A stretch of 64,000 nt of DNA from an uncultured Spirochaetota bacterium (GCA_963783575.1 CAWAOD010000015.1:128001-192000); one strand, 5' to 3'. Counted from the first letter of the stretch, positions 1 through 55,628 are shown. The notes: a model not told the origin generated them from the sequence alone. Program-made: numbers and translations.

Positions 1-92
1 AAAACGGATTGTTCCATCGATTGCCGGCAGGAATGAATTTCTGATTTCTATTCTGTCGATGCCGGTTATATAATAACTTATGGATGTGAATT

Positions 93-1487
93 ATGATTTT
101 ATATCAGCTTCATACGATAAATGACTTTATTATGTTTGTGTTGAAAATTTATTTATTTTTGTTTAGCCTGAGTGTTATAATATTCCTATTGATTATGACA
201 CCTGAATTCATACGGCGTCTGGTTACAAAAATGAATCCTATCGCCGCAATCCTTTTCATATTAATTCTTTTTTTCTGTTTTTTTAATAGAACAAGAAATG
301 CTGTTTTACTATTTATTCTGTTTATCTTATTTGTGAATAGTCTGGTTATGTTTGGATCCATATTCCAGGCAATATTTCTTAAGGTTATAAGGAGAAAATC
401 AAAAATACCCGATAAGATGGATTATTACCCTGAAATTACCATAATTTATCCAATCAAGAATGAAAGCAATATCATTTGTAATTCCATAGATAAGGCATTT
501 GAAGTAGATTATCCGCCCGAAAAGATAAAAATAATCGTTATTGATGATAATTCGACAGACAATACGCTTGATGTCCTAAACAATTATTCAAAAAAGAACA
601 AGATTACAGTATATAAAAATGATAAAGAGCCGGGAAAAGCCAGTGCGTTGAATAATATTTTAAATAATGTAAGTACTGAATTTCTGGTTATAATGGATGC
701 CGATCATTATATGTCAAAAGATTTTTTGAAAAAAGCCCTGCCCTATTTCAAAAATCCAAAAGTCGGCCTTGTCCAGGGCATGAATTGCATTCGTAACGGC
801 GATCAATCGATCATAGCAAAATTGGTTGAACTTGAATATCATGGGCTTTATCAAGTAATGTATTATTTAAAACCTTTGCCGGCATATCTTGGAACAGGAG
901 CGGTTTTCAAAACAGAGGTATTTAAAATGACCGGTATGTTTAAAAATGACATATCGACTGAAGACTTGGAATTTAGCTTCAGAATACATCAGAATAATTA
1001 TGAAGTAATATACAGCAACAAATTTTGTACATACGAACTGGCCACTGTAAAATTAAATGAATTTTTACGGCAAAGATACAGATGGCTTAGGGGAACATGG
1101 CAGGCCGTTAAAACTCAATTCTCCAATATGATCGTTTCAAAGAACATGAATTTTCTTAAAAAATTGGATTTCTTATCTACATGTTTTTTCCCTTGCATTC
1201 TTCTTTGCTCATTCTTAATTAATGTCTATTATTTTTTCGGCTTTATTAATGTTATCTCCTGGCCGGTAAGCATGCTCTGGTTATTTTTCATAAATATTCC
1301 ATATATTTTATATTATTTTCTTGGGGTAATATTTGCAAAAAAAACTAAAATGATTCCTGTTGTACTTTTAATACCCCTTTTTTACGCTTTATATTCGATA
1401 GCCGCCTTCGAAGCAATGTTTGATGAATGGGTAATAAACAGTAATTATAAGGGTATCAAAGCAGATAGATCGGGCAGTCATTATTAA
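93..1487 (+). CDS. Family 2 glycosyltransferase, membrane-bound (cellulose/PNAG synthase-like)
   Basis: DDNSTD, GKA, MDAD (DxD), TED and QRYRW (QxxRW) motifs; N- and C-terminal TM helices. Confidence 0.9.
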   Translation: MILYQLHTINDFIMFVLKIYLFLFSLSVIIFLLIMTPEFIRRLVTKMNPIAAILFILILFFCFFNRTRNAVLLFILFILFVNSLVMFGSIFQAIFLKVIRRKSKIPDKMDYYPEITIIYPIKNESNIICNSIDKAFEVDYPPEKIKIIVIDDNSTDNTLDVLNNYSKKNKITVYKNDKEPGKASALNNILNNVSTEFLVIMDADHYMSKDFLKKALPYFKNPKVGLVQGMNCIRNGDQSIIAKLVELEYHGLYQVMYYLKPLPAYLGTGAVFKTEVFKMTGMFKNDISTEDLEFSFRIHQNNYEVIYSNKFCTYELATVKLNEFLRQRYRWLRGTWQAVKTQFSNMIVSKNMNFLKKLDFLSTCFFPCILLCSFLINVYYFFGFINVISWPVSMLWLFFINIPYILYYFLGVIFAKKTKMIPVVLLIPLFYALYSIAAFEAMFDEWVINSNYKGIKADRSGSHY

Positions 1488-1512
1488 TTTTGATTATCAA
1501 AGGAGCTGATAA

Positions 1513-2860
1513 ATGAAAAAACTGATGTTAATTCAACCGGCTATAAAACATCAATCAAAAGGATCTGCTAAATCAAAAGTCTGGGGAATGCCACCGCTTG
1601 CGCTGGCTTATGTTGCGGCCTATACACCTGGCAATTGGGATATCAGGATAATTGATGAGCTTATAGAGGAGATACCGTATGATGATAATCCTGATTTGGT
1701 TGGAATAAGTGTTTCTTTTACAACAAGCGCTCCCAGGGCATACCAGATCGCTGAAGAATTCAGAAAGAAAGGCATTCCCGTCATATTAGGAGGCATTCAT
1801 GTTTCCATGATACCTGATGAAGCGCTTAATTATGCGGATGCAATTGTCATAGGAGAGGCGGAATCGAATCTGGAAAACCGTTATCTCTGATTTTGAGGAA
1901 GGAAAATTAGGGAAAAAATATTTCGGTCAAAGGCTTCCTCTGGACAATCTCCCCCTTCCCAGAAGAGATTTGCTGTCTGATAAATATGAACTGGACATTA
2001 TTCAGACCACACGGGGATGTCCTTTTAACTGTGAATTCTGTTGTGTCACCGCATTCAACGGATCTTCCTACCGGCAGAGACCAGTTGAAGATGTTTTAAA
2101 TGAGATATCTCTTATCAAAACAAATGTATTCCATATCATCGATGATAATATTCTGGGGTTCGGCAAAGAGGCGGAACAGCGGGCTATCAGACTGTTTAAA
2201 GGAATGATCGATAGAAAATTCAATAAGTTCTGGAACTCGATGGCATCCGTTAACATTGCCGATAATGAAGAGGTGTTAAGATATGCTTTTAAAAGCGGAT
2301 GCCGCAGTTTATATATCGGCTTCGAATCCATCAATCCAGACAGTTTGAAGGAAATGAGAAAAGGAATAAACCTTAAAGCCGGGATATCAGGCTTCAAAAC
2401 TGCCATAAATAAAATTCATCGGCATGGCATCAGTATAAATGGAGGATTCATTATCGGTAATGATAATGATAATCCCAAAATATTCAGGGAACTGAATGAA
2501 TTCATGAAAGAAACGGATAATTTTGCCATAAACTTCCTGACGCCTCATCCGGGTACACGATTGTTTGACCGGTTAAAAAAAGAAGATCGTATTATTTATA
2601 ACCGTTATCCTAATGATTGGCAACGATATACTAACGAACAAATTGTCATAAAACCTAAAAATATGTCCGTTGATGATCTGTCCCACGGATATTTGTATCT
2701 TGTCAATAAAAGATTTTCCAGGAAAGCCATTTATTTACAGTGTTTGAAAACTTTAATCAGGACAAGAAATTTGAAATCAGCTTTATTTTCCTATTTTACA
2801 AACAAAAGATCATGGAAAGATCTTATACATGATCGAGATTTTGAGAATATCGGCAGGTAA
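1513..2860 (+). CDS. B12-binding radical SAM protein (class B-like), split by a frameshift near 1867
   Basis: ORF 1513-1890 is a B12-binding domain (PPLALAYVAA, ILGGIH, IGEAE); ORF 1970-2860 has TRGCPFNCEFC. Removing one A near 1867 gives a continuous GEAESIWKTVISDFEEG...LPLPRRDLL read. Confidence 0.85.
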
Positions 2861-2867
2861 AAATGAT

Positions 2868-4184
2868 ATGGACAAAGAAAAAAAATACTATCCGTTGACT
2901 AGTTATCAAAAAATTATATATTATGGAGAGATGTCGCTGCCGGGTATTCCAACCCAAAACTTTTTATGCAGCATGAAATTGGGCAGTGAAATAGATTTAT
3001 CAATTCTGGAAAAAGTAATTAATTTAATTATTTTAAAGAACGATAGCTTTCGTTTAAGATTTAAAACAGATAAAGGAATAAAGTATTTATTCAAGAAGTT
3101 GAATTTTTTTAAAAGATGCACCTATGTAAAGCAGTATGTTTCAGAATACGAGGAAAAAAAATTTGAATTCTATGAATTGAGTTCAGAATATGCCGAATGG
3201 GTCAAACTCCAATCAATTAAGTTGTTTGATCTTTATGATTCGGACTTATACTCTTTTATTTTTCTGAAATTAAATACCGGAGAATATGTTGTCTTTCTTC
3301 GCATTCATCACATAATAACCGACGGATGGTCATTAAATCTTGTAATCAGCCAGATAGGCGAATATTATACAAAAATAAAAAATGGATTACTCATTGATTT
3401 GCATCCAAATCCTTCTTATATTGATTTGATATTAAAAGAAGAAAAATATCAGAAAACAGATAAGTTTCGCAATGATAAGAAATTGTTATTTGAAAAATTT
3501 AAAAATGCCCCTGAATCTGCACTATTTAAAAAGAAAATGAATCATAGAGGTAATTGTAATTATAAGACATTTATATTATCCCCTGATATAACAAAGATAA
3601 TATATAAACTCTGTGAAAATGTATTCATATATCCTTTAATTTTATTTACAGCGGCTATAGTCCGTTTGATTAAAAGTAAAACCAATATTAATGATATTAT
3701 ATTGATAATGCTTTATCATAACAGGGTTAGTAAACAGGAAATGGAAACTACCGGCATGTATAGCAAAGCAATACCCATGCGTATCAAATTGGGAGAAAAA
3801 ATGAATTTAAAAATGCTTAGCAATAAAATTTTTGCAGAATATAAATTTTCTATAAATCATGGGCAAGAAGCGGCCATTATGAATTTATTAGAAAACGGCA
3901 ATAAATTCTATCGAAACGCTATCTTGATTTCAAGTGAAAAATATCCTTCGGATAATACAGGCATTGTTAAATCCATTGAATTTCATGACCTCGGTTATGT
4001 GTCCAATCCATTGATCTTTCAGATTAATGATTACAATCAGGCAGGATTCAAACTGAAATATGAGTATCAAACAAATTATTTTTCAGATATAGAAATTGAT
4101 GATTTACAAAGGGAGATAGAAAATATTATTATTCAATTTGGGAAAGGAGAATTGGATATTTCTAATCGCATTAATCAAATTTAA
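2868..4184 (+). CDS. Stand-alone NRPS-type condensation domain protein
   Basis: YPLTSYQ (C1 motif), NDSFRLRF, catalytic HHIITDG (HHxxxDG); about 440 aa with no A or T domain. The ORF track starts at 2829; ATG 2868 avoids overlap with the upstream gene. Confidence 0.85.
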   Translation: MDKEKKYYPLTSYQKIIYYGEMSLPGIPTQNFLCSMKLGSEIDLSILEKVINLIILKNDSFRLRFKTDKGIKYLFKKLNFFKRCTYVKQYVSEYEEKKFEFYELSSEYAEWVKLQSIKLFDLYDSDLYSFIFLKLNTGEYVVFLRIHHIITDGWSLNLVISQIGEYYTKIKNGLLIDLHPNPSYIDLILKEEKYQKTDKFRNDKKLLFEKFKNAPESALFKKKMNHRGNCNYKTFILSPDITKIIYKLCENVFIYPLILFTAAIVRLIKSKTNINDIILIMLYHNRVSKQEMETTGMYSKAIPMRIKLGEKMNLKMLSNKIFAEYKFSINHGQEAAIMNLLENGNKFYRNAILISSEKYPSDNTGIVKSIEFHDLGYVSNPLIFQINDYNQAGFKLKYEYQTNYFSDIEIDDLQREIENIIIQFGKGELDISNRINQI

Positions 4185-4440
4185 TAAACTTTAAATTAAT
4201 TGCCTTTTATCAAACTTTTTCAAGCAATTTATTAATAATTTCGGTTTTTGTAAAAAGTTTTTCTTGAATATTAGATATTAATGTGGTAAAATTTTTTCTC
4301 GGTTATTATTTGTTGTTATACAAAAATCTTTTGATTTTTTTAATTAATATTAACCCAAATTTATATTAATTTGGAGATTAATTGGTGATTCAGATATACT
4401 CAAGGATTTGAAATTGGCTGCAAATATAAGAGGTATAGTT

Positions 4441-4692
4441 ATGGTTGAGAAGATCATCGATATTTTATGTGAGATAAAAGGTGATAACAGTCTGAAAGGG
4501 AACCTGAATGCAAGTTCCAGCATAATAAGCGATGTTGGCCTGGATTCTCTTCAAATGATTACTTTTATTCTTAGGCTGGAAGATGAGTTTAATGTTGTAT
4601 TAGACTTTAATGGACTTGATCTGGCAAATTTAAAGAGGATCGATAGTGTCTGTAAGATTATTGAAGAAGCTATGTCGGTTGGACAGGCATAA
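4441..4692 (+). CDS. Acyl/peptidyl carrier protein
   Basis: 83 aa, acidic, GLDSLQM phosphopantetheine motif, LEDEF; GAGG upstream of ATG 4441. Confidence 0.9.
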   Translation: MVEKIIDILCEIKGDNSLKGNLNASSSIISDVGLDSLQMITFILRLEDEFNVVLDFNGLDLANLKRIDSVCKIIEEAMSVGQA

Positions 4693-6047
4693 TGGCAAGC
4701 ATGAATAGAAAACTGGTAATGGGTGTATTCGATTCCGAAAAATTCTGGCGTGATAATAATGCGGCGTCATTGCCAGCGATCTTTGACAGCAGCAGTGCTA
4801 ATATAATAAATGCAATGGATGAATTACTGTTTCCCTTTTGCGCTGAAAACGGCGTACTGATAACAGGAAAGAAGATGAACAACTTCCATAAGAATTATTT
4901 AAATCAAATAGGTTTTGCCTTTACCTGTAATTCAGAAAATCTGGATGACTATGCCGAGAATAGCGGCGGTGTTAAAAACAATATTTTTGAAGCGGCGGCC
5001 TTAAAAAGCAATTTCTCCAAAATAGAAAAACTTATCGATGCCGATACCTATCTCTCTCCATATGCAGTAATTCCCTATACTCTTGAGATGTGCTATACTC
5101 AAAAAATAAAATATTCCCTGCCTGAACTTAAGCATGTAAAAGCTGTAAATTCAAAAATATATTCAAACACATTAAAAGCAAAACTTGGGTTGAACTCTGT
5201 TGGAGAGGTTGTATATGACTGCGGACAGCTTGTCGGTAAGGGTCTTGAAATGCTTAAGAACGGCGCTTTTCTTATAAAAGACGAATATGGGGTGTCTGGT
5301 AAAGGTAATATCTTAATTACATCGGAAAAACTTTTATTAAGGATAGCCGGGTATCTTAAAAAGCAGGAAGACAGTCAAATGCATATCAGGTTTGTGCTGG
5401 AACCTCTTTTAGATAAACAGCTTGATTTTTCATGCAATATCATTTCAACTGCCGATGGAAATATCTATATTGACAGTGTTCAAAAGATAATAAACATCAA
5501 TTTTAATTATGCAGGTACTTGCAGTATTGGAGAGGAATTATACGGATTTTTAGAAGAAAAGGGCTACTTTAAAACGATGGAAAAAATAGCGGGAGAATTG
5601 TATAAAGACGGATATTTCGGAGAAATAGGCATTGATTCGATGATGCTCAAAGATGGAAATATAGTACCTATAATTGAGATAAATGCAAGAAAAACAATGG
5701 GGATGGTGCACCAACGTATTAATATTTATCTTAAAAATTTCGGTTTGGAAGGGCAATTGACTTTTTATTCCCTTGGTTATACCCATACGTTTAAATTTGA
5801 ACAACTTCTTTCAAAAATGAAGGAATATAAAATCCTGTTTGATCCCGAAGCGGAAAAAGGAATTATTCCCCTGTCAGCCAATACTTTACTGATAAATAGC
5901 TATGTCGCTGATAATAATACAGGCGGCCAGGAGATATTTAAGGGAAGGTTCTATTATTTTGCCGTGGCGAAAACAGAGGAAGAGAGAGCTGAACTGATTC
6001 TAAAAACATGCGAATTATTCAAATCTTCAGGATTTAAAATATATTGA
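4692..6047 (+). CDS. ATP-grasp-like ligase
   Basis: LIKDEYGVSGKGN, LEPLL and GEIGIDSM...EINAR ATP-grasp motifs; start overlaps the ACP stop codon (TAATG). Confidence 0.75.
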   Translation: MASMNRKLVMGVFDSEKFWRDNNAASLPAIFDSSSANIINAMDELLFPFCAENGVLITGKKMNNFHKNYLNQIGFAFTCNSENLDDYAENSGGVKNNIFEAAALKSNFSKIEKLIDADTYLSPYAVIPYTLEMCYTQKIKYSLPELKHVKAVNSKIYSNTLKAKLGLNSVGEVVYDCGQLVGKGLEMLKNGAFLIKDEYGVSGKGNILITSEKLLLRIAGYLKKQEDSQMHIRFVLEPLLDKQLDFSCNIISTADGNIYIDSVQKIININFNYAGTCSIGEELYGFLEEKGYFKTMEKIAGELYKDGYFGEIGIDSMMLKDGNIVPIIEINARKTMGMVHQRINIYLKNFGLEGQLTFYSLGYTHTFKFEQLLSKMKEYKILFDPEAEKGIIPLSANTLLINSYVADNNTGGQEIFKGRFYYFAVAKTEEERAELILKTCELFKSSGFKIY

Positions 6048-6065
6048 AATCAAGGGAGAAATAAA

Positions 6066-7154
6066 ATGAAAGATCATACTGTTACTATATTAGCTTCAGG
6101 CGTGGCACTCGGGGTATATTTACCTGCATTAATACTGGAATATCAGCTGAAAAAAAGAGGGTTGAATACAGATATCGCGGTCATAGAAAATCTTGTCGAA
6201 GAGGAAAAGAAAAATAGAATTCTGGTCAATAAGAAGGCCTTTCATGAAAATTTCAGGCTGGCTTTGAAGGGAAGGAAGATGATGAAAGACATGTCGTCCA
6301 GCTTCGATAAAGCCTTGAAATCCGAATTGTTCGATACATGGAAAAAATCGGATAGAAGATATTTTATGACTTATTCGGGTTATTGGGTACCTATTCTGGA
6401 AGAATACAGAGAAATAAGCGGTATAAATATCAATGTTGACGTCATTAATATCGACGCCGATATCTGCCAATCGATGAGCCATTTTACCGACATAATATTC
6501 AGCAAATACAGACAAATCTGGCTGTGGAGCTGGAAAGACAGGCGGCTGGATTATGAAGTTCCGGTAACGGATCAAAAACCCGTAGAGTATTCAAAAAGGA
6601 ACGGCAGGCTGGTCATTCATGGCGGAGGATGGGGTATGGGTACGTATAAAATCAAAATATCCGAACTTGAAAGCAAAGGTTATAATCTTGATATAGTCGC
6701 TTATTACCCCGAAGAAATCGATTACGGAAATAAACGAAGGTATTTTATGATCGAGCCCGGTTGGTCGCCATGGATGAAAAACAAAAACGGCCGCCATGAA
6801 TTTCCGCCGATGTCGGAAATCAAGCAGGGCGAAAACCCTGTTTATAAAAACAAAGAATGCTATCACGAGCTGTTCGACACAATACGGGAGGCTGGAGCGA
6901 TCATAAGCAAGCCTGGCGGCAGCACATTGGCAGATTCGCTCGCTTCGGCAACGCCTCTTGTTACATTAGAACCGTTCGGCGAAGCTGAAGAAAAGAATTC
7001 CGGGATATGGGAATATCTCGGTTTTGGCATATCATATGAAAATTGGGAGAAATCGGGCTTTTCAGTGGATGTACTGGAAAAGCTTCATTTAAACCTCATC
7101 AACAAAGGCAAGACAATCGATTATCCTGAATTTTTCAGTAAAAATATTTCATAG
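6066..7154 (+). CDS. GT-B fold glycosyltransferase-like protein
   Basis: HGGGWGMG and IISKPGGSTLADSL resemble the C-terminal donor-binding motif of GT28/MGDG-synthase-like enzymes. Confidence 0.7.
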   Translation: MKDHTVTILASGVALGVYLPALILEYQLKKRGLNTDIAVIENLVEEEKKNRILVNKKAFHENFRLALKGRKMMKDMSSSFDKALKSELFDTWKKSDRRYFMTYSGYWVPILEEYREISGININVDVINIDADICQSMSHFTDIIFSKYRQIWLWSWKDRRLDYEVPVTDQKPVEYSKRNGRLVIHGGGWGMGTYKIKISELESKGYNLDIVAYYPEEIDYGNKRRYFMIEPGWSPWMKNKNGRHEFPPMSEIKQGENPVYKNKECYHELFDTIREAGAIISKPGGSTLADSLASATPLVTLEPFGEAEEKNSGIWEYLGFGISYENWEKSGFSVDVLEKLHLNLINKGKTIDYPEFFSKNIS

Positions 7155-7193
7155 GCATTTATCCGGATTTGCAAAATAAGGGAGAAGCATAAG

Positions 7194-8366
7194 ATGCAGC
7201 CAAAAACTAAAGTTGAATTTGATGAGAAAACATTCGATCGAATAAAGAGAACCATCAGAAATATGTCGACGGCGTCGCGGGAAAGACAATCAAAGCCTGA
7301 TTTCGCAACAAGGCTCCCCGACGAAGTGGGCATTCAGCTAACCAACCGGTGCAATCTGAGATGCAAACATTGCTACCAGTGGAGCGATGAGGGGCATCAT
7401 AAGAATATGGATTTGAGCAAACAAAAAATGGACCTGGATTTTGGAATTATTGAAAAAATATTTTCTGAAACAAAGGATGTAAAATCAAATTTATATGTAT
7501 GGGGAGGGGAGCCTCTCTGTTATGAAAACTGGGATAGATTCTGCGACCTTCTGGCAAGAGACCCGAGATGGACCGTTCTTTGTACAAATGCCACAGGAAT
7601 TGAGGACAACCTTGATTCATTATTGAAAGTATCCGAAAATCTTGCGGCTTTGATAAGCCTGGACGGATTTGAAGAGGAGAACGACGCCGTCAGGGGGAAA
7701 GGCGTGTTTAAAAAAGTGATAAACGGAATCGACGCATTGCTTGATTGCAAGGGGAAGGGCACTTTCAAGGGTGAGGTTTCTGTCAACTGTGTAATTACCG
7801 ATAGTATGGTAGGCAAGCTTTATGACTTTTTAGAGTATTTTGAGGAAAAAGGGGTAAATACTGTATATTTCTGCTTCACTTGGTATATTCCGGAAAATAT
7901 TTGTTTGGAAATGGATAAATATTTTGAAGAAAAGTTCAATTGGCTGCCAGGCTATAATAAGAACAGGAAAAACAGTTGGCATTCTTATACATATAACCTA
8001 AATCATGGACTGATTGAAAAGCTTAAAAGGGACATGCAAAAGATAAACAGCAGGGAATGGAATATAAGGGTCAGGTATCAGCCTGCCCTGGAAATGGATG
8101 AAGTTGAGAGTTTCATAACCGGGGGTGGAAAGGCGATACAGCATAGAAAATTATGCCTTGCGGCGTCAAATCGTATGAATGTCAGTGCCGACGGCACGGT
8201 TACTGTCTGTAAAATGTTCCCTGAATTCATTGTCGGTAACCTGAATGAACGCAGTGTATATGAATTATGGAACAGTGAGGAATTTAAAAAAGCAAGATTG
8301 ATTATAAGCCAGGGTTTGATGCCGATATGCACGAAGTGCATACTTTTATACCTGCATGGAAGGTAA
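7194..8366 (+). CDS. Radical SAM protein with SPASM/twitch C-terminal domain
   Basis: CNLRCKHC, GGEP, SLDG; C-terminal C...ADGTVTVC...GNL...CTKC. Confidence 0.9.
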   Translation: MQPKTKVEFDEKTFDRIKRTIRNMSTASRERQSKPDFATRLPDEVGIQLTNRCNLRCKHCYQWSDEGHHKNMDLSKQKMDLDFGIIEKIFSETKDVKSNLYVWGGEPLCYENWDRFCDLLARDPRWTVLCTNATGIEDNLDSLLKVSENLAALISLDGFEEENDAVRGKGVFKKVINGIDALLDCKGKGTFKGEVSVNCVITDSMVGKLYDFLEYFEEKGVNTVYFCFTWYIPENICLEMDKYFEEKFNWLPGYNKNRKNSWHSYTYNLNHGLIEKLKRDMQKINSREWNIRVRYQPALEMDEVESFITGGGKAIQHRKLCLAASNRMNVSADGTVTVCKMFPEFIVGNLNERSVYELWNSEEFKKARLIISQGLMPICTKCILLYLHGR

Positions 8367-8485
8367 AGTTCTAAAACTCACGCGGCGGAGTATTTTGTGC
8401 CGCAAGGAAGAAATTTTGCGCTCATCCCCGCAGTACACATTCGACAGGTTCAGTGCAAGAACAGCGGGGTATTTGCACAAGACGA
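8367..8485. repeat. GC-rich palindromic intergenic element (REP-like)
   Basis: gcggc...gccgc and ccccgc...gcgggg stems; contains ttcgacaggttcag, similar to the REP-like motif interrupted by the IS at 43870. Confidence 0.4.
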
Positions 8486-8501
8486 AATAAAAGGAGGAAG
8501 C

Positions 8502-10028: not shown

Positions 10029-10105
10029 TGAAAATTGAAAACAATATAAATCGCCGTATTCAGTGGTTTAGGAGCAGCAATAAAATATTAGAGGAGGGAC
10101 AATCT

Positions 10106-11017: not shown

Positions 11018-11024
11018 AAAACAA

Positions 11025-11960: not shown

Positions 11961-11969
11961 GAGGTTATT

Positions 11970-12953
11970 GTGAGTATTATTGAAATAGAGAATTTATCCA
12001 AGACCTTTCCCTATTATGAAAAGCAGCTAGGCTTCAGGAATTCAATTAAAAATTTATTTTACAGGAAAAAATTATATAAAGAGGCTGTGAAAAAGATTTC
12101 ATTTCAGATTGATGAAGGAGAAATTGTAGGATTTCTCGGGCCAAACGGAGCAGGAAAAACAACAACATTAAAAATGCTCTCAGGAATTCTGTTTCCAACA
12201 TCAGGTTCGATACTTGTTTCCGGATATATTCCTTGGGAAAGAAAAAAACAATATAAAATGCTAATATCCATAATAATGGGACAAAAAAGCCAGCTATGGT
12301 GGGATTTGCCTGCTATCGAATCCCTTTATCTTAATAAATGCATCTATGAAATGGATAATAAATGTTACAGGGTTTTTCTCGATGAATTAACCGACTTGCT
12401 TGATGTGAGACATCTATTGAATATCCAGGTAAGAAGGCTGTCCCTTGGTGAGAGAATGAAAATGGAACTGATCGCGTCATTGATACATAAACCAAAAATT
12501 CTATTTCTTGATGAACCTACGATAGGTCTTGATATAATTACTCAGAAGAAAATCAGGGAGTTTCTGAAATATTATAATGAACAGAATAAAACAACCGTAC
12601 TTCTGACCAGTCACTATATGAAAGATATCGTGGATTTGTGCAGGCGGTCGATCATAATTAATAACGGTGAGATAATTTTTGACGGAGATCTAAACAGGGT
12701 TAACGAATATTTCAGCGGGAGAAAATTAATTAAACTTCAACTTGGCAGAAATATCGAAGAAGGTGTTTTAAAGCAATTCGGACGGCTCAAGAAAATAGAG
12801 GGAATGACGGCTGTTTTTGAAGTTGATAAAAATGAAGTCGGCAAATTATCGGGCAAAATGATAGAATCCCTTCCTATAATCGATTATACAATCGAAGACA
12901 TACCGGTTGAAGAAGGTATAACAATTTTATATGAACAAGGGAAAAAGAGATGA
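11970..12953 (+). CDS. ABC transporter ATP-binding protein (ABC-2 exporter type)
   Basis: GPNGAGKT Walker A, LSLGERMK signature, LFLDEPT, TSH. Confidence 0.92.
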   Translation: MSIIEIENLSKTFPYYEKQLGFRNSIKNLFYRKKLYKEAVKKISFQIDEGEIVGFLGPNGAGKTTTLKMLSGILFPTSGSILVSGYIPWERKKQYKMLISIIMGQKSQLWWDLPAIESLYLNKCIYEMDNKCYRVFLDELTDLLDVRHLLNIQVRRLSLGERMKMELIASLIHKPKILFLDEPTIGLDIITQKKIREFLKYYNEQNKTTVLLTSHYMKDIVDLCRRSIIINNGEIIFDGDLNRVNEYFSGRKLIKLQLGRNIEEGVLKQFGRLKKIEGMTAVFEVDKNEVGKLSGKMIESLPIIDYTIEDIPVEEGITILYEQGKKR

Positions 12954-13759
12954 TTTCTTTGGAAAAATATTATCGATCGTTTCTAATCGGCATTCAAAAC
13001 GCAATGGAATACCGGGCTAATTTTTTGATAAGCATCTTTTCTGCAATTGTCCCTATATTTATCCAGACATTCTTCTGGTTATCAATATATAGATCTTCGG
13101 AACATTCGGTCATTTTCGGGTATACATTCTCACAGATTCTTAACTATACTATACTTGCACAGCTTGTATCAAGGTATGTGAGAACGGGGTTCGAGTATGA
13201 GATTAATGAAGATATAAAAAACGGCGGATTAAATAAATTCATTATAAGACCTATCGGATATTTTACTTATAAATTCTTTTGCTTTATTGGATCCAAGACA
13301 GTTAATTTTCTGATAATATCCATTTTGATAACTGTTTCGATCTTTCTATTAACAGTTAATGTCGGTACGTCCATAACATTACTTTCAATTACATATTTTG
13401 TTTACTCATTGATACTCGCTCTTAGTCTGAATTTCCTGATATTCTTTTGCATCAGCACATTGTGTTTCTGGCTTTCGGAAATAGGCTTTCTATTTGAGGC
13501 CGTCAGGATAATAATAATAACATTAAGCGGCGGTATTTTTCCTCTTGATATCTTCGGCCTGAAAATAGTTAGGGTTTTAAGTTGTATGCCGTTCAAATAT
13601 ACAATAAGTTTTCCTGTTGAATTACTGAATAATAAAATTACAGGTTTTCAGGTATTACAGGGTTTTTCCATTCAAATACTCTGGATAATATTTTTTTTGA
13701 TATTATCAGTTATTTTGTGGAAAATCGGCACTAAAAAATATACAGCCGTTGGAGGATAA
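12950..13759 (+). CDS. ABC-2 family permease
   Basis: MEYRANF start, about 6 TM helices, LSGGIFP, C-terminal YTAVGG. Confidence 0.85.
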   Translation: MISLEKYYRSFLIGIQNAMEYRANFLISIFSAIVPIFIQTFFWLSIYRSSEHSVIFGYTFSQILNYTILAQLVSRYVRTGFEYEINEDIKNGGLNKFIIRPIGYFTYKFFCFIGSKTVNFLIISILITVSIFLLTVNVGTSITLLSITYFVYSLILALSLNFLIFFCISTLCFWLSEIGFLFEAVRIIIITLSGGIFPLDIFGLKIVRVLSCMPFKYTISFPVELLNNKITGFQVLQGFSIQILWIIFFLILSVILWKIGTKKYTAVGG

Positions 13760-13763
13760 GTAT

Positions 13764-14576
13764 ATGTTGAATGTTTTGAAAGAAATCAAAAAACATTTCA
13801 TCATTTATTGTCTTTTCGTAAAAAACAATGTAATGTCTCAAATGGAATACAGGGTTAATTTTTTTACCGGTATCGCAATGGAATTGGGATATCTGATGGT
13901 AAAGATATTGTATCCAATAGTGATTTATCAGTCCGGTACGAAAATAAACGGATTTTCTCCCGACGAACTTTTGATTTTTATCGGTACATTTGTAATAATT
14001 ACCGCATTTTATGCCGGTCTCTTTATGATGAATTTTTTTCATTTCAGAGTTCTTATAAGAGACGGACATTTAGATATAATGATAACAAAGCCGGTATCGC
14101 TGCAATTTATCTCTACTTTAAGACAGTCTGACATAGGACTCTTTTTTATAGATGCTGCAGGCGGGATCGTAATGGTTATTATCGGGTTATTAAGAACCGG
14201 AATCTCAATCTCATTTTTTGATATAATAGGATATGCCGTTTTTATCTCGGCCGGCGCTATTATCGGGTATTCGATTTTTTTAATTCCAGAAATTTTAAAT
14301 TTCTGGTTTGTTAACGCCGGAGCTATTGCTGAAACGGCTGATTCATTCTGGGATTTCAATCTGGTTCCAATGGTGATTTATGATAAGGTCATTCAGCAAA
14401 TCGGTGTATTTGTTCTGCCTCTATTTGTAATTACAAATTTCCCAACGTTATTTATACTAAAAAAAATGAGCTTAATTTACTTTATTTGGGGGTTGCTGGC
14501 CCCGATTATTTTTTTGACATTAAGCCGTCTATTCTGGAAAGTCGCAGTTAAGAATTATTCCAGCGCTAGCAGTTGA
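13764..14576 (+). CDS. ABC-2 family permease
   Basis: MEYRVNF, GHLDIMITKP, C-terminal YSSASS; GGAGG upstream of ATG 13764. Confidence 0.85.
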   Translation: MLNVLKEIKKHFIIYCLFVKNNVMSQMEYRVNFFTGIAMELGYLMVKILYPIVIYQSGTKINGFSPDELLIFIGTFVIITAFYAGLFMMNFFHFRVLIRDGHLDIMITKPVSLQFISTLRQSDIGLFFIDAAGGIVMVIIGLLRTGISISFFDIIGYAVFISAGAIIGYSIFLIPEILNFWFVNAGAIAETADSFWDFNLVPMVIYDKVIQQIGVFVLPLFVITNFPTLFILKKMSLIYFIWGLLAPIIFLTLSRLFWKVAVKNYSSASS

Positions 14577-14597
14577 CAAATATTTATCTGTAATGTT

Positions 14598-14652
14598 TGT
14601 CAGTTTTCCTGATTTATGTCAGATTTCACTACATCTGTCAGATTTTACAACA
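14598..14652 (+). promoter_or_regulatory. Three TGTCAG boxes at 19-bp period; candidate enhancer (UAS) for a sigma54 activator
   Basis: TGTCAG at 14598, 14617 and 14636; the last two form TGT-N11-ACA; they lie about 110-165 bp upstream of a -24/-12 promoter. Confidence 0.55.
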
Positions 14653-14763
14653 CTCTTATCTCATCAATAGGAAGCATAAAAGGATATTTCGAAATTCTAT
14701 AATTAAAAGCTTCACATCAATTAAGAATAATCATCAGCTCTAAAACTCTCTCCGGTCTTTAAT

Positions 14764-14779
14764 TGGCATGCTATTTGCA
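14764..14779 (+). promoter_or_regulatory. Sigma54 (-24/-12) promoter
   Basis: TGGCATGCTATTTGCA = GG-N10-GC, upstream of the GT gene at 14894. Confidence 0.75.
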
Positions 14780-14893
14780 TATTTGAAGGACTGTACAGAT
14801 TATTTAGAAAAACAAAAATCATGGACCCAAGATAAATTATTTAATAAAACTTAAAATCTTCAATTATCATATTGGGTCAAGGAGTATATTGAT

Positions 14894-16006
14894 ATGCCTT
14901 TGTTTATATGGTTGGTTATTGTGCTTGCTGCTTTTTCATTAATAGTTTTTTTATCATCATTGAAGTATATAACATATATTATGAGCAAAACATTTCCAGA
15001 TATGAAGTTACGGGTTAATCTTTTCGTCCCCTGCAAGGGAATGGAACCGAACCTTCTTGAAAATCTCAAAGCTTATGCCAGTCAGGAATATTCTAATTAT
15101 CAAGTTATTTTTGTCACAGCAACGGATGATGATCCTGCAATAGAAGTCATTCGAGAAATTATCAGTTTGTATCCGCATTGCAAGCACATGGCCGCTGGTA
15201 TAAATAATAATTATAGTCAAAAGATCAATAATTTGATTATGGGAACAGAAAGATATAATGAATGCGATATTTTTGCTTTTGGAGACTCTGACATCGCTCC
15301 TGAGAAAAAATGGCTGAGCCGTTTGATTTCCCCGTTAAAGAATCCAAAAATCGGAGCTACAACCGGATACCGATGGTATTGGAAAAATAAAAGAAGTTTT
15401 TTCGAGAATATTGTTATTATGTGGAATGGCTTCATCATATTCTTTATGCTGCTTCCGTTCTATAGATTTATCTGGGGCGGCACTTACGCTGTCCGGAGAG
15501 ATCTGTTTAATAATATGGATGTCAGAAATGTCTGGAATAATGTCGTCACAGAAGACTTTACGCTTACCGCTGTAATCAGAAGCCATGGATATAAAATTCA
15601 CTTTGTTCCCAATTGTATATCTCTTTCTTATTTCGAGTTCAATTTTTTAAGCGGTGTGGAATGGACGACCCGGCAATTACTTCTCTCGAAATTCTATTTC
15701 CAAAGGCTTTTTATCGGGACTTTGATATTTGGGATTTTCGGGTTCCTGGCTTTCGTTTTATTGTTTCCGCTCTACTTAATTGCGTTTCTAATGTTCGGGT
15801 TGATTATTGTGGGAATAACACGGTTTATTTTCCGGCTTCTAAAAATCAATATCAAAATCAGCTATTTTATGTCTTTATATTTAATTGCATCTTGTGTACT
15901 GCTGTTTGTTAATATTGTAATGGCTTTGTTTTCGCATAAACTGAAATGGAGGAATGTAACCTACCATATTCTTTCGGCTAATAAAATGAGGGTGGAAACA
16001 GCTTAA
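14894..16006 (+). CDS. Glycosyltransferase (GT2/GT21, ceramide-glucosyltransferase/HpnI-like)
   Basis: VPCKG, QKINNL, FGDSD, TTGYRW, TED, WTTRQ and C-terminal WRNVTY. Confidence 0.85.
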   Translation: MPLFIWLVIVLAAFSLIVFLSSLKYITYIMSKTFPDMKLRVNLFVPCKGMEPNLLENLKAYASQEYSNYQVIFVTATDDDPAIEVIREIISLYPHCKHMAAGINNNYSQKINNLIMGTERYNECDIFAFGDSDIAPEKKWLSRLISPLKNPKIGATTGYRWYWKNKRSFFENIVIMWNGFIIFFMLLPFYRFIWGGTYAVRRDLFNNMDVRNVWNNVVTEDFTLTAVIRSHGYKIHFVPNCISLSYFEFNFLSGVEWTTRQLLLSKFYFQRLFIGTLIFGIFGFLAFVLLFPLYLIAFLMFGLIIVGITRFIFRLLKINIKISYFMSLYLIASCVLLFVNIVMALFSHKLKWRNVTYHILSANKMRVETA

Positions 16007-16132
16007 AGGTACATTTATATATTCTCACTTTTCATTAACATCCGGTCTTCAATAATAAATCAAAGCAGGCCTTAAAAATTCCCCTGCACGGAGGTTCGAT
16101 TTCTAATTCTATGAGATTCCTAAATCCTCGGA

Positions 16133-16510
16133 TTATTTTTCATTAGTTTTAAAAACTTCTTTGGCTGCTGAAATTCCATTAAGAGCTGCAGGAAAGCCTG
16201 CATAAACAGACATTTGAATTATTATCTCAAGAATTTCTTGTTGCGATAAACCTACATGTAAGCCTGCACTTATATGAACTTTAAGCTGGGGGCTAGCATT
16301 ACCCAAAGCAGTGAGAGCGGCAATTGTTGCAATCTCTCTCGATTTTAAATCAAGATTTTCCCTGGAATAAATATCACCAAATGGATATTCTACCAGGTAG
16401 CGTGCAAAATCTGGTGATATTTCAGCTAAGCCTTTAACTACTTCTGTTCCCTTATTACCATCAACTTCTTCAAGCTTCCTAAGCCCTCGTTCATACCTTG
16501 TTTCTTCCAT
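16133..16510 (-). CDS. Carboxymuconolactone decarboxylase family protein
   Basis: FGDIYSR, REIATIAALTALG, QLKVH, YAGFP; start MEETRY at 16510. Confidence 0.9.
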   Translation of the reverse strand: MEETRYERGLRKLEEVDGNKGTEVVKGLAEISPDFARYLVEYPFGDIYSRENLDLKSREIATIAALTALGNASPQLKVHISAGLHVGLSQQEILEIIIQMSVYAGFPAALNGISAAKEVFKTNEK

Positions 16511-16856
16511 TTTCCATCTCCTTATAAATTTGTATTTTCTTATCAAGAAAAATTAAGTGACTTTGAAGTAAGTCAATTTCTGTTTGAATTGACTGCCTTT
16601 GAGTTATAAGCATCTCTTTTCTTGTAGTAATAGTTGAATCACCTTGATATCGAAGGTCAGAATATATTTTTATATTTTTCAAAGGCATATTTGTTTTTTT
16701 TAAGCGTAGAATAAATTTTAACCAGGTTATGTCTTCTTCGGAATAATCTCTTTTTCCACCTCTTTGCTCTACTTCCCGTAATAATCCCAATTTTTCATAA
16801 TAGCGCAGTGTATGTGCTGTGACTTCTAATCTTTTTGCCGTTTGGGTAATTGTCAT
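16491..16856 (-). CDS. MerR family transcriptional regulator
   Basis: HTLRYYEKLGLL...KRDY HTH motif followed by a coiled coil. Confidence 0.92.
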   Translation of the reverse strand: MTITQTAKRLEVTAHTLRYYEKLGLLREVEQRGGKRDYSEEDITWLKFILRLKKTNMPLKNIKIYSDLRYQGDSTITTRKEMLITQRQSIQTEIDLLQSHLIFLDKKIQIYKEMENGRNKV

Positions 16857-16873
16857 ATTTATCTCCTGTCATA

Positions 16874-16904
16874 ATTGTAATACTTCGAGTAGACTCTTTG
16901 TCAA
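16874..16904 (-). promoter_or_regulatory. MerR-type promoter with 19-bp spacer and operator
   Basis: Minus strand reads TTGACA-aagagtctactcgaagtat(19)-TACAAT with a GAGT-nn-ACTC dyad in the spacer. Confidence 0.8.
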
Positions 16905-17051
16905 ATATTATTTTAAATATTATCAAATTTTTCTATTAGTATTGAGATCATATTTTTTCAAATTTTAGTGATTGTTGATGAAAAATCAAATCAGTAATTT
17001 ATATCAGTTCGAAAAACTCAGGGAGGGCGGTTGATTCCGGACAATGAATGT

Positions 17052-18317
17052 CTATAATTTCAATTCCAATTCTTTATAAATTAATTGTTCCGCTTCATCT
17101 GCGGTATGCTCGCGAATTTTACCTGAAAATTTATAATCGTATTCTTTTAACCCAAAATTATGACGCTTGGCAAAATCCATCAAATAACCGAAAGCTTGTG
17201 GAGTTATCATCGGACAAATCAAATTCTCTTTCTTCAAGATTGCATCTATATTAGCTGTGTCAAAATCCATTGTATCCGCTAATGTATATGGTGAGTAAAT
17301 TTTACCTAAAGTTCTGTAAAATAATTTTTCAATTTCATTCAGATTGGCGGGTCTGTCTTCAACATACTCAATACCGCTGACATTAATCGTATTCAGCATC
17401 ATCTCCATATAGAACTGATGGGACGTCTCTTTGCGGTTTACCACATGAATGCTCTTTTCTTTGCAAGCCAGTAGCGGATACTTAACCAGAACTTTCGCGA
17501 CATAGTCCGCTGGAACTATATTTAAACCGGCGGCCCTGTTGATGGTCATTCGCGCAGGAATGCTGAATTTTTCAGCATACCGATCCTCCCATTTACTGAT
17601 ATTTTTCAGTTTTAAGTGGAGGAAAAAACGAGCCCAATCATAAAAGACGTCAAACTTGTACATTACTCCGTAAGGTTTGGTAATCAATCTTCCGCAAACT
17701 ATTGATAACCTAAAATACAAACATCTAACATTGCTTTTTCTTTCAAAATCCCGTACCAGCATTTCCGATATTAGCTTTGTCTTTTCATAATGATTGCGAA
17801 ACACAACCTTGGGATTGATATAATCCGGCGGAATTTTACCGTAGGTTTTCCCGCAAGTATAAGCCGTTCCTACAAAACAGAAAGTATCAACCTTCAATTG
17901 TTTTACCAGTTCCAAAATTAAAGAGGTACCCCTTACATTAATATTCTCCAGGTTAGAAACCACAGCCGAATTGATCCTGAAATCGCTCAATGCAGCTACA
18001 TGATAAAATAGATCTATTTTTTTGGATTTTAACAGCTTCAAACCGGTCTTGGATATATCCAGATTATCTTTGCTTAAATCAATATCAATAAAAATCACCT
18101 TTTCCCCGATGAAACGGATAATGTCTTCCATAATACTTTCAAAAATGCCTTCATAATTCAGAATTCCAATGATCCTTTCCCGGAGTGAAACGTAATTTTG
18201 TTTTCTGCCCAGGATGATCAGATTCAGTTCATCAAGATTGTTTATGTGTCCCAGGATCAGTTCTATCAGCAAATTTCTGCCTACAAGACTTGTTGCGCCG
18301 TTGATAACGATAATCAT
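17052..18317 (-). CDS. Extended SDR oxidoreductase (fatty acyl-CoA/thioester reductase-like)
   Basis: NGATSLVG Rossmann-like motif, HVAA, NVRGT, YEKTK (YxxxK), RLSIV, NIVPADYVA. Confidence 0.8.
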   Translation of the reverse strand: MIIVINGATSLVGRNLLIELILGHINNLDELNLIILGRKQNYVSLRERIIGILNYEGIFESIMEDIIRFIGEKVIFIDIDLSKDNLDISKTGLKLLKSKKIDLFYHVAALSDFRINSAVVSNLENINVRGTSLILELVKQLKVDTFCFVGTAYTCGKTYGKIPPDYINPKVVFRNHYEKTKLISEMLVRDFERKSNVRCLYFRLSIVCGRLITKPYGVMYKFDVFYDWARFFLHLKLKNISKWEDRYAEKFSIPARMTINRAAGLNIVPADYVAKVLVKYPLLACKEKSIHVVNRKETSHQFYMEMMLNTINVSGIEYVEDRPANLNEIEKLFYRTLGKIYSPYTLADTMDFDTANIDAILKKENLICPMITPQAFGYLMDFAKRHNFGLKEYDYKFSGKIREHTADEAEQLIYKELELKL

Positions 18318-18468
18318 ACTTATTCTTTCCTTACTGTTATTGAAAGTTTATTAATATAAAATTATTACGAAAAAGGCTTTTATTTGCTTATTTTGCGGCC
18401 AGATAACAAACTGTCATAATTCTATACCACAGTCGTCAAATACTGCAATAAAAAAAATTCTAAAAAAA

Positions 18469-20025
18469 TTAAATTTTAATCTTGCCTACAGCAAGCGAAA
18501 GATTTCTAAAAAACTTCAAAGGTCTTACAAAAAAGTTCTTATAAATTATTTCGCTCACAAAAATGGGAAAATAAGCAAATAATGAAACATAAGTTATTAA
18601 AAAAGGATTTTTTTTAAATATTTTATTTTTCTTAACTAAACAAAGAATTTTGTGACCTACATATGTTGTTGTTAAATAAAATAAAAGAGAATAATAATCA
18701 AAAAGTTTATCCGACAATCTATCTTCAGCTTTATAAATATTAAGTGCGTCTTTTATTTTAGTTCCTTCTAATGAATAGAGGTGGTTAACATTCAGATAAT
18801 AAGGAACCGGCAAATTTGAAAGAACATCTAAAGTATCCCGCAAGTCTTTCTCTTTTTCTGCAGGATTATAAGTTATCACATCCACATAAAAATTTATATT
18901 TAATTTTTTAAGCATTCTCGCTACCTCAATATATACTTCTTTATTGAAAGCTCTGAAAAATATATCTTTATTTATTCTCTCACTGCCTGATTGCAAAGCC
19001 AGGCAAGTTGAAGTAAGTCCTGTTTCCTTTAGAATTTTAAGCTGGTTATTCAATCCTTTTAAAGGAAATATGAAGCAGAAAAAAGGAAAATTTATTTCTT
19101 TTATATAATATTCTTTAAATTCTTTAAGCCAATTAATATCTAAAGAAAAAACATCATCTTCAAATTGAATTTCTTTAAAATCAAGAATTTCCTTTGCTTT
19201 TTTCAATTCCATAATAACATTGAGAGGAGATCTTCTTCTTAAAAATCTTTCACCGGGATATTGCTTTTTTAAAAAATCTTCACAACAATAAGAACAATTA
19301 AAAGGGCAACCTCTGGCTGTAATAGTGTGATATTTCTTAGAATAACTAAATTCTTTAAAATCGCTAATTAAAGTATCTTTTTCAATCATATACTTGTTTT
19401 CTGATGAAATATCCTTAAAGGGCAATTCATCTAGATTATCAATTAAGCGATTTAGAGGATTTCTTATTAAATCATCATTTTTAAGATAGCATAAATTATT
19501 AATAGAATTCAACTCTTTTTTTATATCGATATTTTTTGCAATATCAACAATTGTTTTTTCACATTCTCCGATACAAACGAAGTCACAATAATTTAGAGAC
19601 TCTTTAGGATTTATAGTAGGATGCGGGCCGCCCCATATCAATGTTATTGACGGATAATTTTTTTTTAAAATATATGATACTTCTATCGCTCTCTTCTTGT
19701 TAGGAGAGGTTACACTAATGCCGATAAGATCAGGAGATATTTTTTTAACGAGATTAATCAGTGTATTTTTTTCATATTCAATTAATTCCGGTCCGGTGGC
19801 AAAAGAAAATTTTTTCCCATACTTATTCGTCCCCACCCAAGATTCGCTGTTAACAACCTTGCTTGGTTTTACATACATTTTTGTTTTTGTAGCTGGAAAA
19901 CCGTTTCGTTGAAGAAATAGAATGTGAGATTCATGTCCTTCTCTTTTTAATATTGCAGACATAAGTCTAATTCCTGTCGCATTTATGTCATTAAGAGATA
20001 TAAATAAAACTTTTGCCATATACAC
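18469..20025 (-). CDS. B12-binding radical SAM protein
   Basis: WGGPHPT, IGECE, ARGCPFNCSYC, FEDDVF, QSGSER. Confidence 0.88.
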   Translation of the reverse strand: MYMAKVLFISLNDINATGIRLMSAILKREGHESHILFLQRNGFPATKTKMYVKPSKVVNSESWVGTNKYGKKFSFATGPELIEYEKNTLINLVKKISPDLIGISVTSPNKKRAIEVSYILKKNYPSITLIWGGPHPTINPKESLNYCDFVCIGECEKTIVDIAKNIDIKKELNSINNLCYLKNDDLIRNPLNRLIDNLDELPFKDISSENKYMIEKDTLISDFKEFSYSKKYHTITARGCPFNCSYCCEDFLKKQYPGERFLRRRSPLNVIMELKKAKEILDFKEIQFEDDVFSLDINWLKEFKEYYIKEINFPFFCFIFPLKGLNNQLKILKETGLTSTCLALQSGSERINKDIFFRAFNKEVYIEVARMLKKLNINFYVDVITYNPAEKEKDLRDTLDVLSNLPVPYYLNVNHLYSLEGTKIKDALNIYKAEDRLSDKLFDYYSLLFYLTTTYVGHKILCLVKKNKIFKKNPFLITYVSLFAYFPIFVSEIIYKNFFVRPLKFFRNLSLAVGKIKI

Positions 20026-52326: not shown

Positions 52327-52602
52327 CTTGACAATTTACTGACCTCTCGGACTATAGTCGAAAAATCCTTGGTCAATAATTACATGCATTTTGATACTTT
52401 TATACCGCTATCGATCCCGCTAAATTTATGCCGGGAATACACATTTACCGCCTCCCACACCGGAAAGTTGCCGGACAATTTGAAATTTACCAATAAAAAA
52501 GCCGGATAAGCATAGGAATTATTGACTCCATACCCCAATTTAACCTGGGTTGTACTACTGTTTGTCCAGCAGCGGGCATTATAAAACCGCCGCTTAAAAA
52601 AA

Positions 52603-53691: not shown

Positions 53692-53757
53692 TTTTCACCT
53701 CCGATTTACAACATTACCCAATAAAGTGTTGTATAGGAATAATATACTTCTTGAAGA

Positions 53758-55575: not shown

Positions 55576-55628
55576 ATTACCCTGCTTAATTCTTAATGTA
55601 GAAACAGTTAATAACCTTCAATATTTTT

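Follow-up and report, generated by a model that had tools for sequence, protein, structure and literature searches.

The subject of this analysis is a small gene cassette built around a carrier protein, found in a 64,000-nucleotide stretch of DNA from an uncultured Spirochaetota bacterium (GCA_963783575.1, CAWAOD010000015.1:128001-192000). This whole stretch is called the window; it sits on a 238-kb contig of a 4.9-Mb genome that is 89.85% complete. The genes at positions 93-20,025 were inventoried from a map of open reading frames (ORFs) and from family scans. Four of them, all on the plus strand, form the cassette. The first encodes an acyl carrier protein (ACP; 4441-4692; PF00550, E 4e-7) with Ser36 in the motif GLDSL, the second an ATP-grasp ligase of 451 residues from the PGM1/BesA fold group (4692-6047), the third a soluble, GT1/GT28-like GT-B glycosyltransferase (GT) of 362 residues (6066-7154), and the fourth a twitch-type radical S-adenosylmethionine (SAM) enzyme (7194-8366). 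The stop codon of the ACP gene overlaps the start codon of the ATP-grasp gene by one base (TAATG). The ATP-grasp and GT-B proteins gave zero Pfam or NCBIfam matches, and their identity comes from the predicted folds. The original prediction, made from this DNA alone, had drawn all genes of the 20-kb span into one new glycoconjugate pathway that depends on a carrier protein and has no adenylation (A) domain. Every gene it named was found at its place and in its orientation by the ORF map, family scans and predicted folds.

Distribution of the cassette

A scan of GTDB with the single ATP-grasp protein found nothing, and a scan with an alignment of this family succeeded, yielding 556 stretches that encode relatives. 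The best 80 of these 556 were fetched and, together with three plasmid loci, gave 83 loci that were searched by tblastn. A metagenome scan produced 169 matches and 79 loci, 31 of which had 5 kb on each side. The resulting 162 loci, of which 104 are 17 kb or longer, were searched with profiles; they are dominated by Paenibacillaceae, and the profile seeds were drawn from these same loci.

Core-type ACP, GT, and radical SAM genes were each found beside the ATP-grasp gene in 103 of the 104 long loci. The tblastn search of the 83 loci gave the ACP in 82, the GT in 82, and a radical SAM homologue in 79. One of these 79 was a 28%-identity paralogue only, and the four misses were short contigs. The same picture was obtained for the 31 metagenome loci with both flanks (radical SAM 31, GT 30, ACP 29) and for the 29 non-Paenibacillaceae loci among the 83 (GT 28, radical SAM 24, with four of the five misses on short contigs). 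The ACP and ATP-grasp genes were adjacent in most loci. Tree distances of the three core enzymes were correlated (Spearman 0.64-0.71 over 48 rows, in which kin are not independent). The record titles of the cassette loci name Bacillota, Spirochaetota, cyanobacteria (Nostoc), gammaproteobacteria (Methylococcaceae, Thiothrix), Anaerolineales, and Streptomyces. ABC genes, which in the window comprise an ATPase and two ABC-2 permeases of family PF06182 (11970-14576, plus strand), were present in 51-53 of the 83 loci, with the ATPase up to 66% identical. The conserved unit is thus made of four genes, ACP, ATP-grasp, GT-B, and twitch radical SAM, often accompanied by the ABC-2 trio. It is common to bacteria of six phyla, and it is a mobile unit. 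The co-occurrence in other genomes that had been proposed for these genes holds for the four-gene core, which is near-constant; the ABC exporter, which the proposed core had included, is a frequent accessory only.

No AMP-binding (A domain) or ketosynthase (KS) match was found on the 238-kb contig, so that no such gene upstream supplies the ACP from there. A and KS domains were both absent from 76 of the 104 long loci, KS being found in none. An A domain was present in 28, 16 of which had a second carrier match beside it, and several of these A domains lay within nonribosomal peptide synthetases (NRPS). With the core kept in 103 of the 104 loci, the claim of a carrier-dependent pathway lacking A and KS domains is well supported.

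Predicted folds and conserved residues of the core proteins

The ACP residues G33, S36, and E47 were invariant in 40 rows. The AlphaFold model of the ATP-grasp protein had a pLDDT of 93, and its best Foldseek matches were 8YND (TM 0.69), BesA (8YI6), and 3WVQ/3WVR, which are peptide ligases. K196, G200-G205, E237, D315, and E329-x-N331, which make up the ATP loop, the metal residues, and the E-x-N residues, were invariant in 56 rows. The protein belongs to the PreATP-grasp/PGM1 group and keeps its ATP and metal motifs, as do the enzymes of known ATP-grasp/carrier pathways; other traits of these pathways, namely an adjacent stand-alone carrier with a phosphopantetheine serine and no local A domain, were also present. 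Among such pathways, CtaD of closthioamide biosynthesis loads Asp on its carrier via an acyl phosphate, and the butirosin enzyme BtrJ loads Glu (PMC7183216), which bears out the precedent cited in the original prediction. Alignment of the core ATP-grasp family with the BtrJ/CtaD-type clade, which was represented by the second ATP-grasp of related loci and not by BtrJ or CtaD themselves, gave an hhalign probability of 100% over 413 columns, the whole length, at 22-24% identity. A butirosin cluster was sought for direct comparison with BtrJ, and none was recognisable in the 7 genomes covered. Judged from these profiles, the core ATP-grasp is predicted to form a sister clade to the BtrJ/CtaD-type carrier-loading enzymes. 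This homology and the coupling of the two genes make it likely that the ATP-grasp loads the ACP.

Loading of the ACP might instead occur in trans, through an acyl-ACP ligase or an assembly line encoded elsewhere, with the ATP-grasp acting as an amide ligase on free or tethered amines. Such a role would fit the peptide ligases found as best structural matches (8YND, BesA, and 3WVQ), and the other contigs of the genome hold 17 AMP-binding matches, KS genes, several polyketide synthase (PKS)/NRPS regions, and two phosphopantetheinyl transferases. It is at odds with the one-base overlap of the ACP and ATP-grasp genes and with their adjacency in most loci. Moreover, a seven-gene run on plasmid pSOL1 of Clostridium acetobutylicum ATCC 824 (ACP CA_RS19905, ATP-grasp CA_RS19900, GT CA_RS19895, radical SAM CA_RS19890, Gfo/Idh/MocA, a protein like β-ketoacyl-ACP synthase III (KAS III), and a hydrolase) has no A domain. 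We therefore regard loading in trans as very unlikely.

The model of the GT-B protein had a pLDDT of 92 and matched UDP-glycosyltransferases, MGD1, and MurG with VIA Z scores of 18-20 (rmsd 3.5-4.3 Å, 260-300 residues aligned). The family has an N-terminal G-x-Y-x-P motif without His. Positions 17/18 were His in none of 50 rows and instead carried F, V, A, or T, followed by Y. We take these positions to be the site of the catalytic His of GT1/MurG enzymes (motif G-H-x-x-P), a placement based on that motif and on the G-x-G-H motif found in four GT28-like proteins, the profile alignment of GT and GT28 spanning the C-terminal domain only. The missing His would suit an amine acceptor, and thus an N-glycoside; the conserved H60, D130, or H185 could serve as the base instead. 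PF13528, the GT family used in PMC7183216, matched none of 50 cassette GT rows at E 0.01; the family is present in Atlas neighbours at 0.90-0.91.

The radical SAM enzyme has an invariant CX3CX2C motif and four invariant auxiliary cysteines, C321, C339, C379, and C382 (38 of 38 rows). It had been called a SPASM enzyme. An auxiliary-cluster domain is indeed present, but the four auxiliary cysteines make it a twitch-type and not a two-cluster SPASM protein. Like BtrN and BlsE of blasticidin S biosynthesis, it has one auxiliary cluster with four Cys, and its C-terminal domain is closest to BtrN (E 1e-9). BlsE was matched only at E 0.0035 over 76 positions, and neither an aminocyclitol synthase nor a nucleotide hydrolase was found among 47 annotated neighbour representatives. 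In contrast to both BtrN and BlsE, the cassette enzyme has a conserved basic N-terminal extension of ~40 residues, in which K18, R19, and R29 are conserved (as K or R) in 38, 35, and 33 of 38 rows, respectively. Prediction of the complex of this enzyme with the ACP gave a score of 0.58 compared to 0.07 for the best control; the runs agreed in at least 91% of contacts, and the partner pLDDT was at least 81. Of 157 solved pairs, 116 reached the score mark, as did 2 of 215 mismatched pairs. However, only 18 of the 157 reached it with a score of 0.60 or under, and so did both mismatches, which makes this a weak pass.

Genome-mining tools label the Paenibacillus version of the locus as a sactipeptide cluster, which would make the radical SAM enzyme a maturase of a peptide that is made ribosomally and modified after translation. 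A 'sactipeptide-2' locus is named in PMC7829367 and, according to the available part of that paper, ranked among the top two clusters by transcription in two Paenibacillus strains from caves. One of its primer pairs maps inside the cassette radical SAM gene with the published spacing of 192 bp (7 of 208 loci searched), and a second pair spans the ACP gene with 160 bp (3 of 208); the loci that match are relatives of the strains in that paper and not these strains themselves. From these primer positions, 'sactipeptide-2' is, in all appearance, this four-gene cassette, and L049:2863-3777 and related Paenibacillus loci would be examples of it. SkfB was also the top PDB sequence match of the radical SAM enzyme. 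However, the radical SAM core begins at about residue 40, compared to residue 105 in SkfB, and no PqqD/RRE family was matched in the family scan of the window genes. There were 172 small ORFs in window positions 1-17000, and the 20 with matches in other loci all lay inside larger genes. In the available part of PMC7829367, the predicted precursor overlapped the ACP gene and was missed by BAGEL4. The maturase reading is largely refuted, and we give it almost no weight. One source names the cassette radical SAM 'subtilosin biosynthesis protein AlbA', and the gene has probably been mis-called in other genome papers too.

Candidate off-loading partners and the proposed pathway

In the available part of PMC7183216, off-loading is ascribed to BtrH/CtaG-type transacylases. 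A candidate off-loading enzyme was found in 85 of the 104 long loci: a BtrH-like protein in 68, a KAS III-like protein in 13, a condensation (C) domain in 10, and an alpha/beta-hydrolase in 2. The seeds of these profiles came from the loci themselves, and the BtrH-like label stands for weak PF14399 matches, of which 1 among 7 tested exceeded the cut-off. Cys and His are retained in 15 of 15 KAS III-like proteins. Of the other 19 loci, 13 have GT2/GT4 genes and 6 have neither. In the window, a stand-alone C domain (2868-4184, plus strand; PF00668, E 7e-36) with the motif HHIITDG lies upstream of the ACP gene. Such a domain was detected by tblastn in 2 of the 83 loci. It directly follows the radical SAM gene in L006, a locus of a Bacillota metagenome-assembled genome (MAG), and on a Streptomyces plasmid the core is joined by a C domain right after the GT. 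A metagenome scan with a C-domain alignment gave no relative, and a protein search gave only two other full-length relatives, at 56-58% identity and without context. The C domain of the window is likely the local version of a swappable off-loading enzyme and is accessory to the cassette.

Other partners vary as well. In the 104 loci, neighbours included Gfo/Idh/MocA (49), NDP-sugar epimerase/decarboxylase (29), and kinase (6) genes, and PIG-L deacetylase genes also occur beside relatives of the cassette. Seventeen loci add a second ATP-grasp, a decarboxylase dependent on pyridoxal phosphate (PLP), and a BtrH-like gene, which is the butirosin/closthioamide architecture, and some of them have a second ACP beside this added module. 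The genome of L006 also holds a region (L189:343-9969) that encodes ACPs, a BtrH-like protein, a GT homologue of 42% identity, a thioesterase-like protein, a decarboxylase, and an ATP-grasp of the BtrJ/CtaD type. In three spirochaete loci (L035:11388-15128, L073:11341-15115, and L100:1595-5902), proteins of 550-1250 residues lie between the ATP-grasp and the GT; they gave weak methyltransferase matches only and adjoin a distinctive multi-copy family of soluble GT2 proteins.

The cassette probably belongs to the ATP-grasp thiotemplated pathways, a broad class that is already in print. With butirosin (BtrI/BtrJ/BtrK/BtrH) and closthioamide (CtaE/CtaD/CtaF/CtaG) biosynthesis it shares a stand-alone carrier encoded next to an ATP-grasp from one fold group, the lack of an A domain, and, in relatives, BtrH-like, KAS III-like, or NRPS off-loading partners. 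It differs in that its ATP-grasp forms a separate clade, that its core has no PLP decarboxylase, and that a GT-B and a twitch radical SAM enzyme are its constant partners. Neither a PLP decarboxylase nor a BtrH/CtaG transacylase was found among the window genes at 93-20,025. In neither butirosin nor closthioamide biosynthesis does an invariable core pair ATP-grasp loading with a GT and a radical SAM enzyme dedicated to it.

A precedent for the tailoring of a tethered unit is mitomycin biosynthesis, where MitB glycosylates an ACP-bound unit ahead of a proposed radical SAM step, as stated in the available part of PMC8621148. Glycosylation on the carrier before such a step is what the set MitE/MmcB/MitB/MitD has in common with the cassette, in which the tethering is predicted. 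The pactamycin proteins PtmJ/PtmI/PtmC follow the same order, with a carrier-bound unit glycosylated ahead of a proposed radical SAM step. A further likeness to these two systems lies in the Gfo/Idh/MocA, kinase, and PIG-L deacetylase genes found beside cassette relatives. In contrast to the cassette, whose likely loader is the ATP-grasp, the carriers of both systems receive aminobenzoates via AMP/CoA ligases, and no AMP-binding match that could represent such a ligase was found on the contig of the window. The GTs also differ, as MitB and PtmJ have the GT-A fold and the cassette GT is a predicted GT-B.

We propose, at a probability of roughly 0.55, that the ATP-grasp loads the ACP, that the GT and the radical SAM enzyme tailor the tethered unit, and that the C domain transfers it. 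In the first step, the ATP-grasp would quite probably load a small carboxylic acid on the ACP via an acyl phosphate; an acidic amino acid is our best guess, at even odds. The GT-B would then, with somewhat lower confidence, move a sugar from an NDP-sugar to the tethered unit. Third, and slightly favoured over other roles, the radical SAM enzyme may abstract a hydrogen from this sugar, leading to oxidation, dehydration, C-C bond formation, or ring contraction. Finally, the C domain would join the unit to an acceptor through an amide or ester bond, and export of the product would fall to the ABC-2 transporter. The original prediction had proposed the same loading, tailoring, and C-domain transfer, which remain the best explanation for the core; its alternative off-loader, a short-chain dehydrogenase/reductase (SDR), was found in none of the 162 loci.

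The main rival explanation has the gene products divided between two branches, as in butirosin biosynthesis. On one branch, the ATP-grasp and ACP would supply only an aminoacyl side chain; on the other, a modified glycoside would be built free in solution by the GT and the radical SAM enzyme, and a transfer enzyme would join the two. Butirosin itself is made in this way: its GT and BtrN act on free sugars and the side chain alone is carrier-bound. BtrN, the best match of the twitch domain in the cassette enzyme, has a free aminocyclitol as its substrate, and BtrH-like proteins occur in 68 of the 104 loci. Against this division, no gene for making an aglycone is conserved with the GT across the loci. 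The four core genes are constant, whereas the joining enzyme varies or is missing, and the predicted contact of the radical SAM enzyme with the ACP, weak as it is, points the other way. We consider the two-branch explanation rather unlikely, while ranking it above the other rivals.

Several points also weigh against tailoring on the carrier. All steps are deduced from sequence, fold, and gene context, and identity between the core ATP-grasp and the BtrJ/CtaD-type clade reaches only 22-24%. Both precedents have a PLP decarboxylase, which is missing from the window and from 87 of the 104 loci. In butirosin biosynthesis, the GT and BtrN act on free sugars, an arrangement that the gene list of the cassette would also fit. 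No transfer enzyme was found in the fetched flanks of 19 of the 104 loci. The loci are mostly from Paenibacillaceae, and the profile seeds had come from the loci searched. The complex score of 0.58 lies in a band that is more often wrong than right unless the guess is likely beforehand.

The tethered-tailoring model can be extended to a plug-in module that, in hundreds of species of at least six phyla, makes one new sugar-derived acyl unit on a carrier. The unit would be loaded by the ATP-grasp, N-glycosylated by the His-less GT-B, and rearranged by the ACP-docking twitch enzyme. In Paenibacillus it would go on to NRPS products; in Clostridium acetobutylicum and Streptomyces it would end up on small molecules, and in spirochaetes, cyanobacteria, and methanotrophs on surface glycans. 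Taken together, this chain of assumptions is speculative and, as a whole, unlikely to hold.

If the tailoring does take place on the carrier, it would add radical sugar chemistry on a carrier protein and would account for a cryptic locus whose ligase has relatives encoded in 556 GTDB stretches. The pathway is real and uncharacterised, although the borders first drawn around it were too wide. A literature search, with most subscription journals outside its reach, found no characterisation of the four-gene cassette; its description as new is limited by PMC7183216, in which ATP-grasp/carrier loci with GTs were already flagged in 2020. The available part of that paper counts ~400 uncharacterised loci of this kind, among them a large group that encodes a family 1 GT, and gives butirosin and closthioamide as the only pathways with a carrier-loading ATP-grasp known at its writing. 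CA_P0135 and CA_P0136 appear, within the available part of PMC4845359, in an expression table only. PMC6273380, PMC7996765, and PMC8842026 concern other clusters, as far as their available parts go.

Flanking genes and the wider genome

The plus-strand genes of the span are co-oriented and separated by short gaps. Upstream of the C domain lie a membrane GT2 (93-1487), identified by family scan, and a B12-dependent radical SAM gene (1513-2860). The latter is interrupted near 1867 by a +1 frameshift (one extra base): residues 1-117 of a homologue align in one frame and residues 118-448 in the next, and no identical protein of full length was found. Between the core radical SAM gene and the ABC trio lie a GT-C (PMT_2) membrane protein (8502-10028) and tandem radical SAM paralogues (10028-11017 and 11025-11960), referred to as the twins, which are 68% identical to each other. 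The ABC trio is followed by an HpnI-like membrane GT2 (14894-16006; TIGR03472). The minus strand carries a CMD-family gene and a MerR regulator (16133-16856), an NAD_binding_4 SDR (17052-18317), and a second B12-dependent radical SAM gene (18469-20025). The expected totals of four GTs and five radical SAM genes are thereby confirmed, the first B12 gene being frameshifted. Scans for promoters (101 versus 88.3 ± 8.4) and terminators (13 versus 12.8 ± 4.0) were near shuffle level.

These flanking genes are not conserved with the cassette. Profile searches found the GT-C, the twins, and the SDR in none of the 162 loci. The two GT2s of the window had no match over more than half their length in the 83 GTDB and plasmid loci and none over more than 40% of it in the 79 metagenome loci, and the B12 radical SAM genes had no match over half their length in the 83 loci by tblastn. 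The flanking genes do recur elsewhere, in genomes of the same family. One of these, G206, is 96% complete and has no cassette GT or ATP-grasp; in a single 20-kb stretch, it encodes homologues of the two membrane GT2s (53% and 40%) and of the twins. Tandem homologues of the twins lie near GT2s in G206 and in G139. GT-C homologues were found in four of five same-family genomes tested, two of them without the cassette, and lie far from the cassette in G139 and G186. An SDR homologue was found in 1 of 34 other genomes of the order, at 25% identity.

The cassette has a different kinship. In a sample of 400 genomes of the host phylum, only three others had a full-length GT match. The closest relative of the window cassette is L006 from the Bacillota MAG (ACP 64%, ATP-grasp 66%, GT 71%, radical SAM 80%), to which it is sister with a support of 1.0 in three single-protein trees (48 rows), and the cassettes of the same-family genomes G139 and G186 are less similar (GT 46-49%, radical SAM 56-58%). 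Since it is nearest to the Bacillota locus and not to the same-family cassettes, its apparent relationships fit a separate acquisition. The 20-kb span is a mosaic, in which the cassette landed in a separate island of GT2 and radical SAM genes.

The original prediction had instead read all genes at 93-20,025, including the four GTs, the five radical SAM enzymes, and the SDR, as one pathway to a surface glycolipid or glycan. Co-orientation, short gaps, and the position of the GT-C and the twins speak for such a unit, as do GT2/GT4 genes beside the cassette in 15 of the 29 non-Paenibacillaceae loci and the polysaccharide pyruvyl-transferase, sulfotransferase, and carbamoyltransferase genes that Nostoc loci add. 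However, the flanking genes of the window are missing from cassette loci, G206 has the GT2 pair and the twins without a cassette, the closest cassette (66-80%) is in a Bacillota MAG and not in same-family genomes, one B12 gene is frameshifted, and the CMD-family and MerR genes cut the SDR off from the plus-strand run. A single pathway for the whole span is therefore quite unlikely, and a long GT/radical SAM run such as this one should not be read as such. Lying as they do between the core and the ABC trio that usually goes with it, the GT-C and the twins may cooperate with the cassette locally. That the neighbours supply the acceptor for the carrier-bound unit is conceivable, though we lean against it. 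The surface product is not shown by the neighbours that had been cited for it; the GT2/GT4 genes near other cassettes keep this outcome in view, and for this organism we hold it to be possible but doubtful.

An analogy with HpnI/HpnJ of hopanoid biosynthesis had also been drawn. The flanking genes share the GT2 and B12 radical SAM superfamilies with these enzymes. However, they are not part of the cassette, and they miss the curated cut-offs: the GT2 scores 102 bits against 310 for TIGR03472, and the B12 radical SAM genes score 82 and 99 against 578. No squalene-hopene cyclase was found in the host genome, at its 89.85% completeness. A hopanoid role of the flanking genes was consequently rejected.

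Further features of the genome were noted. A weak FlaA match in the family scan agrees with a spirochaete host. The GT/radical SAM island extends upstream of the window (L001:15022-19985), where a second membrane GT2, 44% identical to that at 93-1487, lies 2.5 kb upstream of the window, together with a radical SAM/SPASM gene, a small GT2, and a B12 radical SAM gene split into two overlapping ORFs. Other apparently split genes, for AMP-binding, NRPS, and B12 and twitch radical SAM proteins, lie on contigs C4, C5, C6, C10, and C11, and their frame changes or stop may point to assembly indel errors. Contig C6 (156119-157138) holds a frame-split homologue of the radical SAM paralogue of ~28% identity that is often a companion of the cassette in other genomes. 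The modular PKS/NRPS regions of the genome (contigs C4, C9, C10, and C11) gave 25 KS, 35 carrier, and 8 condensation matches, and a second stand-alone condensation-like protein is encoded on contig C13 (L101:10902-12236). Within the window, translations suggest a transposase-like ORF at 44012-45496 and, at 50539-59693, successive ORFs for secreted, Ser-rich proteins that resemble lipoproteins, with apparent transglutaminase-like segments in three of them.

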